Positions 2,668 through 36,914 of a stretch of 64,000 bases of DNA are shown here, one piece after another. A program made the translations under genes and the position numbers. This DNA is from Arcticibacter sp. (lineage in GTDB: Bacteria; Bacteroidota; Bacteroidia; 2-12-FULL-35-15), in contig JAJNQB010000014.1 in NCBI GenBank assembly GCA_021155045.1, forward strand, positions 85,025 to 149,024, in the 5' to 3' direction. Position 1 is the stretch's first letter. Each line of letters opens with the position of its first letter. The notes under the pieces were generated by a model. The model was not told the origin of the DNA, made no database searches, and was given only the letters and a program-made list of their open reading frames with translations.

Positions 2668-2700
2668 TATAGAACACAAATTTTTATGATTGTTACGATT
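2668..2700. repeat. Copy A of an intergenic ~30-bp repeat (ATAGAACACAAATTTTTATGATTGTTACGATT); it forms the left inverted repeat flanking GxxExxY copy 1
   Basis: An inverted partner lies at ~3116-3143 and a third copy at ~4718-4748 (coordinates ±2). Confidence 0.6.
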
Positions 2701-3097
2701 TTTTATGTTTTTTATATTCGTTATTGAAAACCTTACGTTTATACTCCGCTTCTTTTCCAAAATTTAAGAGTAAGCCTCCCTCGATGTCTGTGGCACGAAG
2801 ATAATTCACCAATTGAGCTTCGTGCTCTTCAATTAAACAATCTGCTGCTTTTAATTCAATAATTACACAATCATTTACAATTATATCTGTAAAATATTGT
2901 CCTACATTTATTTCATCATAAAAAACCCCAATCGGACATTGTTTTTGGCAATTTAACCCAAGTTTTTTTAGTTCTATCATCATTGAATTTTCGTATACCT
3001 TTTCTAAAAAACCATATCCAAGTTTATTATACACATTGTAAAATGCTTTAATAATCAAACCCGTTATATCTGAATGCAAAAAATTATTCCCTGACAT
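2693..3097 (-). CDS. GxxExxY family protein (PD-(D/E)xK nuclease superfamily), copy 1, inserted between hemB and hemCD
   Basis: Family signature GYGFLEKVYENSMMIELKKLG ... DIIVNDCVIIELKA ... EAQLVNYL; length ~130 aa. Confidence 0.8.
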   Translation of the reverse strand: MSGNNFLHSDITGLIIKAFYNVYNKLGYGFLEKVYENSMMIELKKLGLNCQKQCPIGVFYDEINVGQYFTDIIVNDCVIIELKAADCLIEEHEAQLVNYLRATDIEGGLLLNFGKEAEYKRKVFNNEYKKHKKS

Positions 3098-3115
3098 AAT
3101 TTATCTTAACTCATC

Positions 3116-3143
3116 ATCATAATCCTAAAAATCCGTGTTCTAT
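3116..3143. repeat. Copy B (inverted) of the hem-operon intergenic repeat; it forms the right inverted repeat flanking GxxExxY copy 1
   Basis: The reverse complement ATAGAACACGGATTTTTAGGATTATGAT matches copy A at about 24 of 28 positions. Confidence 0.55.
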
Positions 3144-4702: not shown

Positions 4703-4717
4703 TGATTAATTTATATG

Positions 4718-4748
4718 GAACACTGATTTTTATGATAGTTATGATTGT
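4718..4748. repeat. Copy C of the hem-operon intergenic repeat (GGAACACTGATTTTTATGATAGTTATGATT), between hemCD and hemA; it is followed by a complementary AAAATCATAAAAAAATCATAATT segment that can pair with it
   Basis: It is the third occurrence of the motif GAACACnnATTTTTAnGATwnTTAyGAT within 2.1 kb. A local inverted repeat follows at 4730-4790. Confidence 0.5.
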
Positions 4749-4798
4749 TTAAGATTTTACCAGCGAAAATCATAAAAAAATCATAATTAATCTGCGTA

Positions 4799-15008: not shown

Positions 15009-15314
15009 TTACTTCTTCTTTAATTTTTTCTTTGGATTTTGTCTTGTATCCCAAAAACTAATGAGTTCAACTCGTTTAGAGTTTTCAACTATCTGATACA
15101 AAAGTAAATTATGCTTCGTAATCAATGCTTCATGTACATTTACTTTTGAGGAGCCACGAAATAAAAAAGGATTTTTTTCGAGTAAAAAAACTGTTTGCTC
15201 TACATCGTCAATAAATCTCGTTACTTCTTTTTTTGACCAATGTTTGCTAAGGTAATCTATAATGTTATCAAAAGTATTAACGGCTTCAGGAGCCCAAATT
15301 ACTTTGTACGCCAT
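15009..15314 (-). CDS. Type II toxin-antitoxin system toxin, RelE/ParE family
   Basis: It is ~100 aa, has a ParE-like fold signature (LLYQIVENSKRVELISFW) and overlaps an upstream small partner gene. Confidence 0.7.
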   Translation of the reverse strand: MAYKVIWAPEAVNTFDNIIDYLSKHWSKKEVTRFIDDVEQTVFLLEKNPFLFRGSSKVNVHEALITKHNLLLYQIVENSKRVELISFWDTRQNPKKKLKKK

Positions 15315-15532
15315 TTCTTATATTTTTTCATCACTTCTTTGTGGGCAATACCTTCTCCATTTACTAATTGAATTTTTGCTTTTTCAACAGAGGACTTTTG
15401 TTCTTCAGTTAATTCATCCCACAAATCCGTTTTATGGGCTTTTAACAATGCTTTTATCTGCTTTAAGATAACTTCACTATTTATTTCCAAAAGTTGTTTA
15501 GTTAATTCTATTTTTTGAGCATGAAGATTCAT
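15299..15532 (-). CDS. Putative antitoxin / addiction-module component
   Basis: It is a 77-aa helical protein that overlaps the toxin gene by 16 bp. The antitoxin-first order is typical. Confidence 0.6.
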   Translation of the reverse strand: MNLHAQKIELTKQLLEINSEVILKQIKALLKAHKTDLWDELTEEQKSSVEKAKIQLVNGEGIAHKEVMKKYKKWRTK

Positions 15533-16844: not shown

Positions 16845-16888
16845 AATTGAATAAATTATGCTACAAATATATATCTTTGGAATGGATT

Positions 16889-17342
16889 TCTCGCAGAGCC
16901 GCTGAGTACGCTGAGAAAATTTATTATGAAAGAAAATGATATTACTGGTGCACTGATTGATATCTTTATAAAGGTACATTCTCAGCTAGGACCAGGCTTG
17001 TTTGAGAGTGTTTACGAAGAAGTAATTTGCTATGAATTAAAGAAAAGAAGCTTAACATATAAAAGACAGCAAGAAATTGGAGTGTTTTATGATGATATAA
17101 AAATGGATATTGGATTTAGAGCCGACCTAATTATAGAAAACAAAGTGATTGTGGAAATTAAATCAGTTGAACTTTTAGCACCTGTTCATCACAAACAACT
17201 ATTAACCTACTTAAAATTAACAAACAAGAAAGTAGGATTGCTAGTTAACTTTAACGTGAGTTTGGTTAAAGATGGAATCGTAAGAATTGTAAATAATTAT
17301 TAATAAAAAACAGAGCTCAGCGAACTCAGCGGCTCTGCGAGA
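16889..17342. mobile_element. TIR-bounded GxxExxY cassette, copy 2 (MITE-like): perfect 19-bp terminal inverted repeats TCTCGCAGAGCCGCTGAGT / ACTCAGCGGCTCTGCGAGA
   Basis: The inverted repeats were read directly (±2 bp). The element is ~454 bp and carries one gene. Confidence 0.45.
16926..17303 (+). CDS. GxxExxY family protein (PD-(D/E)xK nuclease superfamily), copy 2
   Basis: Signature GPGLFESVYEEVICYELKKRS ... DLIIENKVIVEIKS ... HHKQLLTYL. Confidence 0.8.
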   Translation: MKENDITGALIDIFIKVHSQLGPGLFESVYEEVICYELKKRSLTYKRQQEIGVFYDDIKMDIGFRADLIIENKVIVEIKSVELLAPVHHKQLLTYLKLTNKKVGLLVNFNVSLVKDGIVRIVNNY

Positions 17343-17351
17343 AACACAAGT

Positions 17352-18620: not shown

Positions 18621-18682
18621 ATATGAACGAATAAAAATACTGCGAACATTGCGCCTTCTCTGTTTGCACTGTAGTAAAAAAT

Positions 18683-19300
18683 ATGGCTAGATCCAAAATA
18701 AAACACAATCCGAACGCCAAACAATTGATTGACGAAGGAATAGCAAGCGCAGAGCCCTTTGCTCAAGCAATTTGTAAAAAGTTGCGTGCTATTATTTTAA
18801 AAACAGACCCTGCTATTATTGAAGATTGGAAATGGGGACCAAATTATTATAAAGATGGAATGGTTTGCGGTTTTTGGTATTTTAAAAAACATTGCACTCT
18901 TGTATTTTATCAAGGGGCATTATTAAAAGATAAAAAAAAGGTGTTGCTGAAAAATGAAGGCAATGTTCATAATCGACATTTAAAATTTACCGATGTAAAA
19001 CAAATAGATGAAAAATTATTAATAGAATATATTACAGAAGCAATAATAAATAATGAGAAGGGATTAAAAATTATAGAAACAAAAAATAAAACGGTAATTA
19101 TTCCTGATGATTTTATAAAGATATTGTCAAAAAATAAGCTTCTTAATTATTTCGAAAACCTTAGTTATTCCCATAAAAAAGAATATATAATGTGGATTAA
19201 TGACGCAAAAAAAGAAGAGACACGATTGAGAAGAATGGATACAGCCGTGGAAAAATTAAGTGCAAAACAAGGGTTGAATGATAAATATTTAAAGAAATAA
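18683..19300 (+). CDS. DUF1801 / YdeI-like domain protein
   Basis: Domain-level resemblance only. Confidence 0.55.
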   Translation: MARSKIKHNPNAKQLIDEGIASAEPFAQAICKKLRAIILKTDPAIIEDWKWGPNYYKDGMVCGFWYFKKHCTLVFYQGALLKDKKKVLLKNEGNVHNRHLKFTDVKQIDEKLLIEYITEAIINNEKGLKIIETKNKTVIIPDDFIKILSKNKLLNYFENLSYSHKKEYIMWINDAKKEETRLRRMDTAVEKLSAKQGLNDKYLKK

Positions 19301-19470
19301 ATTGTCTCGCAAAGACGCAAAGTACGCAGAGAAAGAGTTTATGAATTCAGTTTTTGAAAATTTAAATGCAAAACAAGGGTTAAACGATAAATACATCAAA
19401 AGATAATTTGTCTCACAAAGACGCAAAGTACGCAGAGAAGCAGTTTATGAATTCAGCCAATAAAGAATTA
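19260..19470. repeat. Two tandem ~106-bp units covering the DUF1801 gene 3' end, the left TIR of GxxExxY copy 3 and its ATG
   Basis: The units TGCAAAACAAGGGTTGAATGATAAATATTTAAAGAAATAAATTGTCTCGCAAAGACGCAAAGTACGCAGAGAAAGAGTTTATGAATTCAG and TGCAAAACAAGGGTTAAACGATAAATACATCAAAAGATAATTTGTCTCACAAAGACGCAAAGTACGCAGAGAAGCAGTTTATGAATTCAG match at about 90%. Confidence 0.7.
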
Positions 19471-19871
19471 AATGAAAATGAAATTTCAAAAATATTATTA
19501 AACATTTTTATTTCTATTCATTCACAACTCGGACCAGGATTGCTTGAAAGTGTTTATGAAGAAATAATATGCCATGAATTAGATAATCATGGAGTTAAAT
19601 ATAAAAGACAACAAGGAATTGCTGTCGTTTACAATGAAATTAAACTTGATATCGGTTTTAGAGCAGATATAATAGTATCGGATAAAGTAATAATTGAAAT
19701 TAAATCTGTTGAGCAACTTGCTCCTGTTCATCATAAACAATTATTAACTTACCTAAAATTGACAAATAAAAAACTTGGTTTGTTGGTTAACTTTAATGTA
19801 AATTTAATCAAAGATGGAATTGTAAGAATTGTAAATAATTTATAACCTTGCGAGCTTTGCGTCTTTGCGAG
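19411..19871. mobile_element. TIR-bounded GxxExxY cassette, copy 3: 18-bp TIR TCTCACAAAGACGCAAAG / CTTTGCGTCTTTGCGAGA with 1 mismatch
   Basis: Read directly from the sequence. The TIR is related to that of copy 2 (shared TCTCGCA...AGTACGC.GAGA frame). The upstream duplicated unit carries a perfect-match left TIR copy. Confidence 0.45.
19447..19845 (+). CDS. GxxExxY family protein, copy 3
   Basis: About 75% identical to copy 2, with a near-identical C-terminal 30 aa. The ORF track begins at a TTG at 19408, which lies inside the TIR; the ATG at 19447 is the likelier start. Confidence 0.75.
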   Translation: MNSANKELNENEISKILLNIFISIHSQLGPGLLESVYEEIICHELDNHGVKYKRQQGIAVVYNEIKLDIGFRADIIVSDKVIIEIKSVEQLAPVHHKQLLTYLKLTNKKLGLLVNFNVNLIKDGIVRIVNNL

Positions 19872-19885
19872 AAAAAAATAGAAAT

Positions 19886-21232
19886 ATGAATAAAAAAGTA
19901 AATATTATTGGTGCTGGCTTAGTTGGTTCTTTGTTATCCATCTATCTTGCAAAACGTGGATATAAAATAAATATTTTTGAACGCAGACCAGATATGCGAA
20001 AAGCAGCAATGTCTGCTGGAAAATCAATCAACCTTGCATTAAGCGACAGAGGATGGAAAGGACTTGAAGGTGTTGGCATTGCTGATGAAATTAAAAAAAT
20101 TGCTATTCCAATGTATGGCAGATTTATCCATCATAAAGATGGCTCAACAGCTTACCAACCTTATGGAAAAGAAGGCCAAGCAATCTATTCTGTTTCAAGG
20201 GCAGAAATAAATATGAGATTGATGGATTTAGCAGAACAACAAAAAAATGTTACTATCCATTTCAATGAAAAATGTATTTCTGTTGACAAACAAAATCTAT
20301 CTGCTGAATTTGAAAACACGGAAACAAACACCATATCTAAACATAAAAGTGATTTAATCTTTGGTTCGGATGGAGCTTTTGCTGCCTCTCGTTTAAACTT
20401 ACAATTAACAAGCGATAGATTTGAGTACAATCAACATTATATTGAAGCTGGTTATAAAGAACTTATAATACCTCCTGGTCCCAATGGAGAATTTTTAATT
20501 GAGAAGAACGCATTGCATATTTGGCCTCGCGGAAGTTTTATGATGATTGCATTACCAAACATGGATGGTAATTTTACTTGCACTCTATTTTTACCATTTG
20601 AAGGAGAGTTTTCTTTTGAAAAATTAAGAACAGAAGAAGATATTTCTACATTTTTTAATGAACAATTTCCTGATGCTGTGCCTTTAATGCCAACTCTTAT
20701 TGATGATTTTATGAACAACCCAACATCATCACTTGTAACTGTAAAATGCTATCCTTGGACTTTTGAAGACAAGATTGCATTGATTGGCGATGCTGCCCAT
20801 GCTGTTGTTCCGTTTTACGGACAAGGAATGAATTGCGGGTTTGAAGATTGTGTGGTATTAAACGAACTAATAGGAAAGCATAATGAAGATTGGAACAAAA
20901 TCATGAACGACTATCAAGAACTTCGAAAACCTGATGCCGATGCAATTGCTGATTTAGCCATTGCAAATTTTGTGGAAATGCGTGATAAAACTGCAGACCC
21001 AAAATTTTTATTACAGAAAAAAATTGAAGCTAGATTTAGTGAAAAATATCCCGAAAAATGGATTCCTCTATATTCAATGGTAACATACAGCCCTCACATT
21101 CGCTACTCAACCGCAATGAAAGAAGGACAAAAGCAAGAATTAATCATGCAAAAAATTATGGCGATGCCTGAAATAGATAAAAAATGGGATAGTGAAGAAG
21201 TTGAAAAGGAAATTTTAAAAAGTATCAAGTAA
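19886..21232 (+). CDS. kmo: Kynurenine 3-monooxygenase (FAD-dependent)
   Basis: FAD-binding VNIIGAGLVGS motif, with KMO-like homology throughout. The start was moved to MNKKVNIIG, downstream of the cassette's right TIR. Confidence 0.85.
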   Translation: MNKKVNIIGAGLVGSLLSIYLAKRGYKINIFERRPDMRKAAMSAGKSINLALSDRGWKGLEGVGIADEIKKIAIPMYGRFIHHKDGSTAYQPYGKEGQAIYSVSRAEINMRLMDLAEQQKNVTIHFNEKCISVDKQNLSAEFENTETNTISKHKSDLIFGSDGAFAASRLNLQLTSDRFEYNQHYIEAGYKELIIPPGPNGEFLIEKNALHIWPRGSFMMIALPNMDGNFTCTLFLPFEGEFSFEKLRTEEDISTFFNEQFPDAVPLMPTLIDDFMNNPTSSLVTVKCYPWTFEDKIALIGDAAHAVVPFYGQGMNCGFEDCVVLNELIGKHNEDWNKIMNDYQELRKPDADAIADLAIANFVEMRDKTADPKFLLQKKIEARFSEKYPEKWIPLYSMVTYSPHIRYSTAMKEGQKQELIMQKIMAMPEIDKKWDSEEVEKEILKSIK

Positions 21233-21288
21233 ATAGTATTAAGTATCAAGATTTAACCTATTACTACCTGATACTTAATATTTGATAC

Positions 21289-21600
21289 TTGTTACTAATA
21301 AAAATGATTTACGATAAAAAATATCTTCAAGTAAAACTCCTTTTAGAAAATGTTTCGAACTATGAATTAATGGGTGTTTACCGTCCTCAAGCTTATTTGC
21401 AAGGCGCAGGAAAATATTGTACTGAATGTCAAATAAATTTGTTTAAAGCGCCCATTGAGCCAGGAAAAAGCGAAATTGTAAATGCAGTTCTTTTTGCCCC
21501 ACATGGTTATGGCGAACATTTACTTACAGGAAGTTTATTAACTTTACGTAACGGAATTGAGATAGAAGCAAAAGCCGTTGTTTTGGAAATAATAGGATAG
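21289..21600 (+). CDS. Hypothetical protein
   Basis: Open reading frame only. A later start at MIYDKKY is possible. Confidence 0.35.
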   Translation: MLLIKMIYDKKYLQVKLLLENVSNYELMGVYRPQAYLQGAGKYCTECQINLFKAPIEPGKSEIVNAVLFAPHGYGEHLLTGSLLTLRNGIEIEAKAVVLEIIG

Positions 21601-36768: not shown

Positions 36769-36779
36769 GTTTGCTACTG

Positions 36780-36900
36780 GACAGAAATTGCCACAGTGGC
36801 GGGGTTAAATCCTCGTCCCTGTCCCCACGCACAAAAGTAAATAACATGCACAACACTTTGATTTACCACTGTCCCCGCCATTGTCGGCAATTGGTGTATA
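36780..36900. other. GC-rich structured element between convergent genes: imperfect 17-bp inverted repeat TTGCCACAGTGGCGGGG / CCCCGCCATTGTCGGCAA, ~85 nt apart, enclosing GGGGACAG-type repeats
   Basis: Read from the sequence. GC content here is far above the local ~30% average. Confidence 0.3.
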
Positions 36901-36914
36901 GGCAGGTTTTGTTT

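Follow-up and report, generated by a model that had tools for sequence, protein, structure and literature searches.

The origin and the mobility of the intervening sequences (IVSs) of 23S rRNA have been open questions since the 1990s. In the Coxiella IVS, a 28-bp terminal stem encloses a sense ORF in its loop, three tandem heptamers (GACAGAT), variable in number, stand before the ORF start, and the stem is where RNase III cuts (PMC4990558). ORF-bearing IVSs are regarded as selfish, and their mobility is not explained (PMC4990558). Palindromic repeats also flank the RAYT or TIRYT genes of REPtrons and TIRtrons, as REPs or TIRs (PMC3733652), and intergenic arrays of heptamers, with a function that is unexplained, are described for Xanthomonas (GGGAATC, often in inverted pairs) and for cyanobacteria (STRR) (PMC4692102). 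The GxxExxY proteins, with 17,501 clusters at 50% identity, are among the largest uncharacterised nuclease families, and we found no functional or architectural description in the literature under the GxxExxY, PDDEXK_3 or TIGR names. Free-standing homing endonuclease genes, such as the seg and mob genes of phage T4, represent intronless homing, and I-Ssp6803I is a homing enzyme of the PD-(D/E)XK type. Correia/NEMIS-type MITEs are co-transcribed and cut by RNase III; they have TA target duplications, carry no ORF and are restricted to a genus.

Here we present the case of a GxxExxY gene that sits inside a long hairpin of 7-base repeat units, between two kynurenine-pathway genes of Arcticibacter sp., in the spacer from DUF1801/OmdA to kmo. 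It is copy 3 of the window, by which we mean the whole stretch of 64,000 nucleotides analysed. The gene (19447..19845, + strand, 132 codons) is preceded by a proximal left arm (19407..19438, +; TCTCACAAAG-A-CGCAAAG-TA-CGCAGAGA) that ends 8 nt before its ATG. It is followed by a right arm (19849..19876, +; TGCGAG-CTTTGCG-T-CTTTGCGAGA), in which the left-arm heptads return as their reverse complement and which is paired with the left arm in the MFE structure and the centroid structure alike, and then by the A-rich leader and start codon of kmo (19877..19888, +; ATG at 19886). Upstream there is a duplicate, distal left arm (19302..19328, +; heptads TCTCGCAAAG-A-CGCAAAG-TA-CGCAGAG). The 18-mer TCTCGCAAAGACGCAAAG occurs three times in the window at one mismatch or fewer, where 0.02 matches are expected by chance from shuffles: perfectly in the distal arm (19305-19322, +), with one mismatch in the proximal arm (19411-19428, +), and perfectly on the opposite strand in the right arm (19855-19872, -). 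The first-pass annotation had described a proximal arm with one mismatch and a perfect upstream duplicate, and every feature that it gave for copy 3 is in place. By repeat search, the arms reach 27-28 nt (19302-19328 or 19407-19434 versus 19849-19876), and it is the distal left arm that pairs better, with 89% complementarity to the right arm for 19302-19328 and 86% for 19407-19434.

The two left arms belong to a tandem duplication of 106 nt (19235..19446, +; units 19235-19340 and 19341-19446, 82% identical). Each unit consists of the 3'-terminal ~55 nt of the DUF1801/OmdA gene, the left arm and 'ATGAATTCAG'; between the units, the coding-fragment part is ~78% identical and the arm part differs by one base. 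The second coding fragment reads as a relic ORF of 21 codons (19341..19406, +; MNSVFENLNAKQGLNDKYIKR before the stop), a diverged copy of the DUF1801/OmdA C-terminus (MDTAVEKLSAKQGLNDKYLKK before the stop) in which several changes are synonymous or conservative (TTG/TTA, AAT/AAC, TAT/TAC). The relic is probably the footprint of a co-transferred flank, by its parallel with the related locus L020, where 5' fragments of kynU are duplicated beside the right arm. A DGR, with the units as a VR/TR pair, does not account for the duplication: the differences are not adenine-specific and there is no reverse transcriptase nearby.

The window holds two more cassettes. Copy 2 (16887..17344, +; ORF 16926-17303; arms 16887-16915 and 17316-17344, 29 nt and 97% complementary) lies in the kynU 5' UTR, just 3' of the conserved TAnnTTTG promoter of kynU (TATCTTTG, -7 type, 16871-16878) and 5' of the kynU start. 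Each arm of copies 2 and 3 is made of three tandem CGCWRAG heptads spaced 9-10 nt, and these heptads are the common frame that the first-pass annotation had noticed; two cassettes of one arm type are thereby found within 3 kb. Copy 1 (2669..3142, -; ORF 3097-2696), between a hemC-hemD fusion gene and hemB, has arms of another unit type (GAACACGGAT / TTAGGAT / TATGAT; 3142-3113 and 2690-2669). Its site is also filled in L229, and its arm type is found in L218/L228 as well. There are also arms without a gene: an ORF-less hairpin with copy-1-type arms (GGAACACTGATTTTTATGAT...; 4717..4798, -) one spacer further along the hem operon, and degenerate arm remnants (ACTGCGAACATTGCGCCTTCTCTG; 18621..18682, +) in the kynU-to-DUF1801 spacer, where L002 has ORF-less arm arrays.

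The copy 3 ORF matches TIGR04256 with 136.1 bits (cut-off 35) and PF13366 with 131.3 bits (cut-off 22). Its catalytic set is intact (G31-E34-Y37, D74, E84-x-K86, H95, Q98..Y102). In 85 family sequences, G31, E34, Y37, D74 and K86 never vary, and conservation of E84 is 90% or more. The AF2 model of the protein (pLDDT 91) has an alpha-beta-beta-beta-alpha-beta core. A fold comparison ranks Cas4 SSO0001 and lambda-exonuclease-type nucleases highest, with the Cas4/RecB-type entry 4ic1 at the top (probability 1.0) and TM-scores of only 0.4-0.5; matches to Cas4 HMMs are weak. Profile match, catalytic residues and modelled fold suggest that the product would work as a minimal Cas4/RecB-like PD-(D/E)XK nuclease. 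Aligned over 124 aa, the proteins of copies 2 and 3 share 72.6% of their residues, close to the ~75% first estimated. The accompanying claim that they are recent paralogues does not hold: dS is 1.8 (saturated) with dN/dS of 0.10, the near-identical C-termini reflect conservation across the whole family, and the two copies are ancient. We found no relative of copy 2 in viral contigs.

In a survey of 80 related genomes, whose compared loci we denote by L-numbers (e.g. L005, L020), the ORF and both arms are present or absent together at fixed intergenic sites, in agreement with the first reading of ORF and arms as one unit. Presence and absence are interleaved on the host tree, and the same sites are filled in divergent genomes, in a patchy distribution. 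Turnover of the sites is rapid among close relatives, where a site may be naked, have other arm types or be occupied. The cassettes are under strong purifying selection, with dN/dS of 0.03-0.14 at dS above 1 (0.08 for the copy 3 ORF against its L002 orthologue), and G1-type cassettes are conserved to the same degree as the adjacent hemB/hemCD and serS/leuS genes. One pair stands apart. L005 and L020 share their cassette at 97% identity (dS 0.11), with flanking genes that are saturated at synonymous sites (kynU dS 1.9, hemL dS 2.8); nucleotides 1-38 of the L020 kynU are identical to L005, and the L020 sequence from nucleotide 39 onward agrees with the cassette-less sister L008. Such a cassette with 38 nt of shared kynU amid saturated flanks indicates a homing-like horizontal transfer. 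It is the one clear horizontal event, and the remaining pairs look vertical, congruent with the host. As read from these alignments, a cassette is kept for long under purifying selection, is repeatedly lost, and has reached the corresponding site of a different lineage at least once. If DNA were simply taken up and recombined by homology, the L005/L020 pattern would arise with no nuclease involved.

Genes here do not in general have an inverted repeat in their flanks: the flank-repeat alignment score is 29-53 for all 12 GxxExxY genes (window and related loci), compared with a median of 17 for 666 other genes (95th percentile 25, 99th percentile 36). RNA folding of a whole cassette places the two arms opposite each other as the closing stem (z = -2.8 for copy 3, -7.5 for copy 2). 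Across 13 cassettes, 88.9% of cells are paired and none of 500 shuffles attains the observed covariation score; the second spacer between heptads is unpaired in most. Arms have three CGCWRAG units, and 4-5 in some hairpins. Across cassettes, the type of arm goes with the clade of the protein. The heptad sequence itself is conserved beyond pairing although synonymous sites are saturated, which points to a sequence-specific reader, and such a reader might just as well work on DNA. As for the intrastrand triplex motif (PMC4666352), the arms are not homopurine. Rfam has no family for the window or for ten ORF-less hairpins, and the only matches are spurious ones to miRNA precursors that reflect the hairpin shape.

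We propose that copy 3 is an IVS-type selfish cassette in an mRNA spacer, a promoterless nuclease gene in the loop of a heptad-armed hairpin, and we give this reading an even chance. The cassette would owe its transcription to read-through, as a part of the kynU-DUF1801-kmo transcript. All the GxxExxY ORFs that we examined point the same way as the gene downstream of them, and the 8-17 nt from arm to ATG leave no room for a promoter of its own (the host promoter is upstream of copy 2), so that read-through, as the first-pass annotation had suggested, appears to be the natural reading. In the transcript, the arms would pair into a stem of ~28 bp that RNase III probably cuts, by analogy with the 23S IVS, and the cut would free the nuclease mRNA while the flanking cistrons stay usable. 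An A-rich leader always comes after the right arm, and the next host start codon lies 9-20 nt beyond the arm in every cassette examined, from which we infer that the insertion is harmless. At the DNA level, spread and persistence would come about by recombination in the host flanks in a homing-like manner, most likely aided by the cassette's own putative nuclease, and not by cut-and-paste transposition. Hairpins that have these arms and no ORF would belong to the same element family and be its more frequent form. Homing as such has no need of arms, which is a point against the proposal. Other points against it are the arm mismatches, where sense-strand G-U is as frequent as A-C (13 each) and gives no sign of RNA-level selection on the stem, the heptad conservation, which would suit a reader of DNA as well, the single clear transfer, the surplus of ORF-less hairpins, and the directly tandem heptamers of Coxiella.

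In Chitinophagaceae, heptad hairpins of this kind in mRNA spacers hold four-helix-bundle ORFs of the IVS protein family (TIGR02436). We see no rRNA in the window or in the 218 loci checked for its signatures, and no case of a GxxExxY gene in rRNA. A wider reading, which we put forward as a long shot, is that GxxExxY nucleases and heptad hairpins make up a phylum-spanning, undescribed class of mobile elements. A Cas4-like mini-nuclease would read heptads in a palindromic 'vehicle' and drive homing-type spread into fixed spacers of housekeeping genes, the stem would insulate the insert at the RNA level, and the ORF-bearing 23S IVSs would be the rRNA-resident branch.

The arm pattern of copies 2 and 3 is present in at least 120 metagenome stretches, mostly as ORF-less hairpins. 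In 45 of 58 paired hairpins the loop is 250 nt or less, arms also enclose loops of 8-40 nt, and a screen of 80 hairpin contigs for the protein found a GxxExxY gene in only 4. The first-pass annotation had allowed that its TIR-like sequences might turn out to be generic intergenic palindromes, for example terminators, at loci without GxxExxY genes. Palindromes of this sort they largely are; intrinsic terminators they are not, as the arms have neither a U-tract nor a plus-strand terminator call, and T's precede and A's follow them. Hosts of the pattern extend from GC-31% Bacteroidota to a GC-63% gammaproteobacterial contig, and the hairpins are mostly downstream of genes, in 13 convergent, 11 co-directional and 2 divergent contexts. 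ORF-less hairpins far outnumber cassettes, and L088 is the only one with remnants of a cassette in the loop and the only one that fits an internal-deletion derivative; the ORF-less hairpins may be independent elements merely occupied by the ORF.

These hairpins bring in a first alternative, similar to the REPIN/RAYT systems, in which they are dispersed non-autonomous palindromes and an arm-flanked, vertically inherited GxxExxY nuclease would read the heptads and cut, spread or preserve the hairpins. The abundance of short-loop hairpins, their REP-like gene contexts, the heptads conserved across phyla as far as the gammaproteobacterial contig, the purifying selection with long vertical residence, and an arm type that tracks protein clade all agree with it, and the REPtron/TIRtron concept is on record (PMC3733652). 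The enzyme, however, is a PD-(D/E)XK protein and not a HUH tyrosine transposase; there are several cassettes per genome, including the two same-arm ones of the window, where RAYTs have about one gene per repeat family; and few of the screened hairpin contigs have the gene. The 64-kb window, moreover, contains no intact ORF-less CGCWRAG hairpin and no further copy of the copy-3 arm 18-mer. We regard this alternative as unlikely. At the DNA level it overlaps with our best explanation.

The first-pass annotation had called the arms TIRs, which in the transposon sense describes a classical cassette or MITE moved by a transposase that acts on terminal inverted repeats. A unit bounded by inverted arms, its presence/absence polymorphism, and the existence of ORF-less derivatives, one of them the internal-deletion form in L088, are what such an element would look like. 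The expected marks of transposition are missing. There is no target-site duplication, that is, no direct repeat at the arm tips, at any filled site (window, L002, L004-L006, L011, L016, L020), and no transposase family is encoded, the sole ORF of the cassette being the 132-aa nuclease. Identical proteins in several contexts would reveal recent transposition, and the three that we looked up (P0110, P0074, P0335) have one genomic context each. The age of the window paralogues and the filling of the same sites across divergent genomes also count against it, and 38 nt of host flank came along in the sole detected transfer, a sign of recombination and not of insertion at the arm tips. We consider transposition of this kind improbable.

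Comparably improbable in our judgement is that the hairpins are RNA elements in the service of the host, which stabilise or process mRNA in operon spacers as REPs do, with the GxxExxY ORF an incidental or domesticated passenger. Hairpins in transcribed spacers, mostly 3' of genes, are consistent with such a role, as are the stable folds, the ORF-less tri-heptad hairpins directly 5' of kynU in L032 and L034, and a protein conserved at the level of housekeeping genes. Against it are the fast turnover of sites among close relatives, identical heptads across phyla, which argue for horizontal spread, the missing U-tract and terminator call, and the lack of a G-U bias in the arm mismatches (13 sense-strand G-U versus 13 A-C). 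That the arms are recombination sites of an inverton that flips the ORF, as 27-29 nt inverted repeats around a 400-nt segment might suggest, is hardly credible given the constant ORF orientation relative to the downstream gene in all cassettes examined, the absence of an invertase gene nearby, and the same arms around 8-40-nt loops.

The IVS architecture of heptad stem and sense ORF is also at home in mRNA spacers, and a cassette of this type can hold a nuclease that is, judged by its residues, catalytically intact and under purifying selection. Such a cassette can be exchanged between genomes along with host flank. If the wider class of mobile elements were real, the IVS would at last have a candidate mechanism of mobility. 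In practical terms, cassettes break short-read assemblies, their arms create spurious N-terminal extensions and small ORFs, and their presence or absence is a fast-evolving marker within otherwise conserved operons.

The GxxExxY protein shares the D..ExK..QxxxY core of the Cas4/RecB domain, and it differs from Cas4 in its size (~125 aa) and in having neither the Fe-S cluster module nor a CRISPR context. Like the cassette arms, the described heptamer arrays line up heptamers in tandem within spacers, and they often face each other in convergent pairs that could fold into hairpins; their unit sequences are other ones, and no nested ORF is reported for them. Correia/NEMIS elements are similar as TIR hairpins inside operon transcripts with RNase III processing, which for the cassette is proposed, and they differ by their TA target duplications, the lack of an ORF and their confinement to a genus. 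Free-standing homing genes resemble the cassette in several respects: a small nuclease gene between conserved essential genes, the same site filled patchily in divergent genomes, purifying selection despite frequent loss, and an age younger than that of the flanks with a short co-conversion tract (here in one pair, L005/L020). The T4 genes reside in a phage, whereas the cassette is in a bacterial chromosome, where its putative nuclease would have to cut the empty site. To our knowledge, homing systems have no counterpart of a flanking heptad hairpin with ORF-less relatives. In REPtrons, as here, inverted copies of a palindromic repeat that is otherwise dispersed without an ORF stand on both sides of a gene, which is inherited vertically and evolves under purifying selection (PMC3733652). 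The REPtron enzyme is a HUH Y1 protein in place of a Cas4-like PD-(D/E)XK one, and the cassette has arms of tandem heptads and many copies per genome. The 23S IVSs of Coxiella and Leptospira sit in helix 25 or 45 of 23S rRNA, in contrast to the mRNA spacer or 5' UTR of the cassette, and their ORF is the S23p four-helix bundle instead of a PD-(D/E)XK nuclease (PDDEXK_3). The Coxiella heptamers are directly tandem (period 7) and those of the cassette are 9-10 nt apart, and excision by RNase III is a feature of the IVS where the cassette has a predicted stem. What the two have in common is the overall design: ~430-500 nt in length, a stem of ~28 bp interrupted by a mismatch or bulge, heptamers in tandem beside the ORF start, and in the loop a promoterless sense ORF of ~125 aa that, in the cassette as in the IVS, would be expressed only within the host transcript.

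The three GxxExxY genes in the window (TIGR04256 / PF13366 PDDEXK_3) each form a unit with two inverted arms. Copy 1 (3097-2696, minus strand) lies between the hemC-hemD fusion gene and hemB, copy 2 (16926-17303, plus strand) between hemL and kynU, and copy 3 (19447-19845, plus strand) between the DUF1801/OmdA gene and kmo. The window has a GC content of 31.7% and the character of a Bacteroidota MAG, and its nearest kynU relatives are uncultured Bacteroidia. The first-pass annotation described copy 3 as flanked by terminal inverted repeats, and these flanks are real: an 18-mer occurs three times in the window against 0.02 expected by chance. The arms of copy 3 reach 27-28 nt (19302-19328 and 19407-19434 against 19849-19876), and those of copy 2 are 29 nt with one mismatch; the arm sequence of copy 1 differs from both. 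The 12 GxxExxY genes of the window and 81 related loci all score 29-53 for flank inverted repeats, compared with a median of 17 and a 95th percentile of 25 for 666 other genes.

We aligned the arms of 13 cassettes, taken from different genomes and all belonging to the copy-2/3 clade. Their layout is three tandem heptads, TCT-CGCWRAG-N-CGCWRAG-NN-CGCWRAG, in which the C, G, C, A and G positions are nearly invariant in every heptad. Between arms, 88.9% of cells are paired, versus 32-53% when the partner is slid, and 500 shuffles all fall short of the observed score for covariation. Across the arms, the R position co-varies (GC in 8 cassettes, AU in 5), and most cassettes leave the 2 nt between heptads 2 and 3 unpaired. 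In whole-cassette RNA folds, both arms pair as the closing stem (z = -2.8 for copy 3, -7.5 for copy 2). Two observations speak against a role of the arms in RNA only: G-U is no commoner than A-C among the arm mismatches (13 vs 13), and the heptad sequence is itself conserved. Between copy 3 and its orthologue in the related locus L002, 20 of 21 left-arm heptad positions are identical despite a dS of 1.3, and the heptad sequence is under constraint.

The arms also occur elsewhere. A search of metagenomes with the 26-nt arm pattern gave at least 120 stretches, and the contigs among the matches listed span 30% to 71% GC. One of them, L133 (63% GC), is gammaproteobacterial by its bioB, 77-80% identical to Chromatiales/Sedimenticola, and carries a CGCAAAG tri-heptad hairpin (1753-1860); therefore the arm sequence crosses phyla. 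Because the heptad is conserved at that distance, horizontal spread, a sequence-specific reader or both are implied. Among the matches listed, paired hairpins have loops of at most 250 nt in 45/58 and at most 60 nt in 30/58, only one ORF-less loop (L088) keeps cassette ends, and 13 contexts are convergent, 11 co-directional and 2 divergent. These contexts are REP-like, i.e. transcribed spacers. A GxxExxY gene is present on only 4 of the 80 arm-pattern contigs screened for the protein. The arms are thus largely what the first-pass annotation named as its counter-case, a palindrome generic to many loci lacking the gene, but they are neither terminators nor random; no plus-strand terminator was predicted at the arms. 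Other hairpins stand in the window itself: one at 4717-4798, ORF-less and with copy-1-type arms (GGAACACTGATTTTTATGAT...), one spacer further on in the hem operon, and an AT-rich one at 21212-21305 overlapping the kmo stop codon (37-nt arms 78% complementary, 20-nt loop), made of AGTATCAAG units in the same repeat-in-arm style as the cassettes and of low GC. A GC-rich 146-nt spacer with internal complementarity (36769-36914), with convergent genes on either side, has no Rfam match.

The GxxExxY family comprises 17,501 clusters at 50% identity (E ≤ 1e-3) and is essentially uncharacterised in the literature. Across 85 sequences there is no variation at G31, E34, Y37, D74, K86, H95 or Y102, and at least 90% of these sequences share E84. 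The AF2 model of the copy 3 protein is confident (pLDDT 91). The solved structures that it matches best are those of Cas4 SSO0001, lambda-exonuclease-type enzymes and Bax1, in line with weak Cas4 HMM matches; tRNA-splicing endonucleases match only weakly. The protein is a predicted minimal nuclease core of the RecB/Cas4 type, and it most likely acts on DNA. Orthologues have dN/dS of 0.03-0.14 with dS mostly above 1, and the intact predicted nuclease is under purifying selection. Some proteins (P0121-P0123, P0128 and others) are 270-295 aa long and have two GxxExxY domains; they may be genuine fusions or tandem cassettes read through as a single ORF.

Cassettes reside at fixed sites and have been lost repeatedly. 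A comparison with 80 kynU loci from named MAGs finds a cassette at the hemL-kynU site of the window, L004, L005, L006, L011, L014, L016 and L020; many other loci lack one there, and cassette-bearing and empty genomes are interleaved in the kynU tree. Empty sites are naked in L009 and L024, hold complete tri-heptad hairpins without ORF in L032 and L034, and elsewhere hold different heptad arrays. At the DUF1801-kmo site, the window and L002/L003 have a cassette, and L006 has only the right-arm tip left. Copy 3 and its L002 orthologue were probably inherited vertically, since their dS of 1.3 equals that of flanking kynU and hemL. Copies 2 and 3, taken earlier for recent paralogues, are old ones because their dS is 1.8; their alike C-termini are a family-wide feature. 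Copy-1-type cassettes are present at the hemCD-hemB site of a distant 4.5-Mb genome and at a leuS-serS site in two lineages, with divergence comparable to that of the adjoining enzymes. All have arms of the GAACRCNGAT/TTATGAT type; therefore arm type goes with protein clade rather than with site or host. The kynU-to-DUF1801 spacer has degenerate CTGCG/TTGCG arm remnants in the window (18621-18682), and larger ORF-less arm arrays with an extra DUF1905-OmdA gene in L002. Adjoining hemL on the minus strand are two short ORFs of 101 and 77 aa that overlap each other (15009-15532); they are kept in L002, have no NCBIfam match and may be a toxin-antitoxin-like pair.

One cassette has moved horizontally, carrying flank with it. 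The L005 and L020 cassettes have 97% nucleotide identity (dS 0.11), versus about 80% for their flanks (dS 1.9 for kynU, 2.8 for hemL). High similarity spans the cassette from one arm to the other and continues across the leader behind the right arm; nucleotides 1-38 of L020 kynU are identical to L005, and from nucleotide 39 it matches the close, cassette-less sister L008. This places a recombination breakpoint inside kynU and marks a co-conversion tract. Insertion at the arm tips would not yield it, and no target-site duplications are visible at any site; the pattern is the expected product of homing or flank-mediated homologous recombination. P0110, P0074 and P0335, the three identical proteins that were looked up, each have one genomic context.

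Duplications of 106-120 nt, comprising one arm and the adjoining host-gene end, occur in the window, L020 and L025/L212. The window has a 106-nt tandem duplication (19235-19446) of a left arm and the final ~55 nt of the DUF1801/OmdA gene. Its second unit encodes a 21-aa relic (19341-19406), a diverged DUF1801 C-terminus in which several of the differences are synonymous, as though another lineage were its source. Arrays of ~110-120-nt units (L020 3771-4060 and 4440-5000, L025 6270-6830, L212 1100-1700) combine one arm with the 5' end of the GxxExxY ORF (x3) or kynU (x5); L020 has three duplicated units on the left and five on the right, and some loci are arranged R-ORF-R or L-R-ORF-R. The arms look like duplication hot spots, and the duplications may have been left by imprecise flank co-transfer or have arisen through slippage at the arms. 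All eight Logan contigs carrying P0110 (L204-L211) stop ~60 nt past the cassette, and the right arm seems to be a break point of short-read assemblies.

Between the left arm and the ATG of the GxxExxY ORF there are 3-17 nt, in which there is no room for a promoter, and the right arm ends 9-20 nt before the next host gene's start codon, followed by an A-rich leader. Copy 2 lies within the kynU 5' UTR, because it directly follows a conserved 'tgcaaaTATATATCTTTG' motif, the Bacteroidetes TAnnTTTG -7 element, which is present in all related loci. The cassette would be transcribed by read-through. By analogy with 23S rRNA intervening sequences, there is perhaps an even chance that the arms then form a stem in the transcript and that an RNase III cut insulates the insert. 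We propose more tentatively that nuclease-assisted homing or arm-specific cleavage underlies spread and persistence.

We found no description of GxxExxY genes in heptad hairpins in the literature searched. The cassette resembles free-standing homing endonuclease genes. It likewise resembles REPtrons and TIRtrons, whose genes have their own dispersed palindromes on either side (PMC3733652), and Xanthomonas inverted heptamer arrays (PMC4692102). Of what has been described, the ORF-bearing 23S rRNA intervening sequence (IVS) comes closest. The 428-nt Coxiella IVS, of unexplained mobility, has terminal inverted repeats that pair as a 28-bp stem containing one mismatch and a bulge, three tandem GACAGAT heptamers, variable in number, just 5' of a sense ORF of ~125 aa, and an RNase III cut within the stem at the first heptamer (PMC4990558). 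In Chitinophagaceae kynU loci (L042, L062, L063, L064, L082), ORFs of the IVS protein family itself (TIGR02436, '23S IVS protein', four-helix bundle) sit in like heptad hairpins in mRNA spacers, flanked by inverted arms of tandem GGTTAAT, GTTTCTC/GTTTGTT or GGTTGAA units, and ORF-less hairpins of the same units flank kynU and the RidA gene. The GxxExxY cassette shares the architecture of the IVS but differs from it on two defining points, lying outside rRNA and having an ORF from another family.
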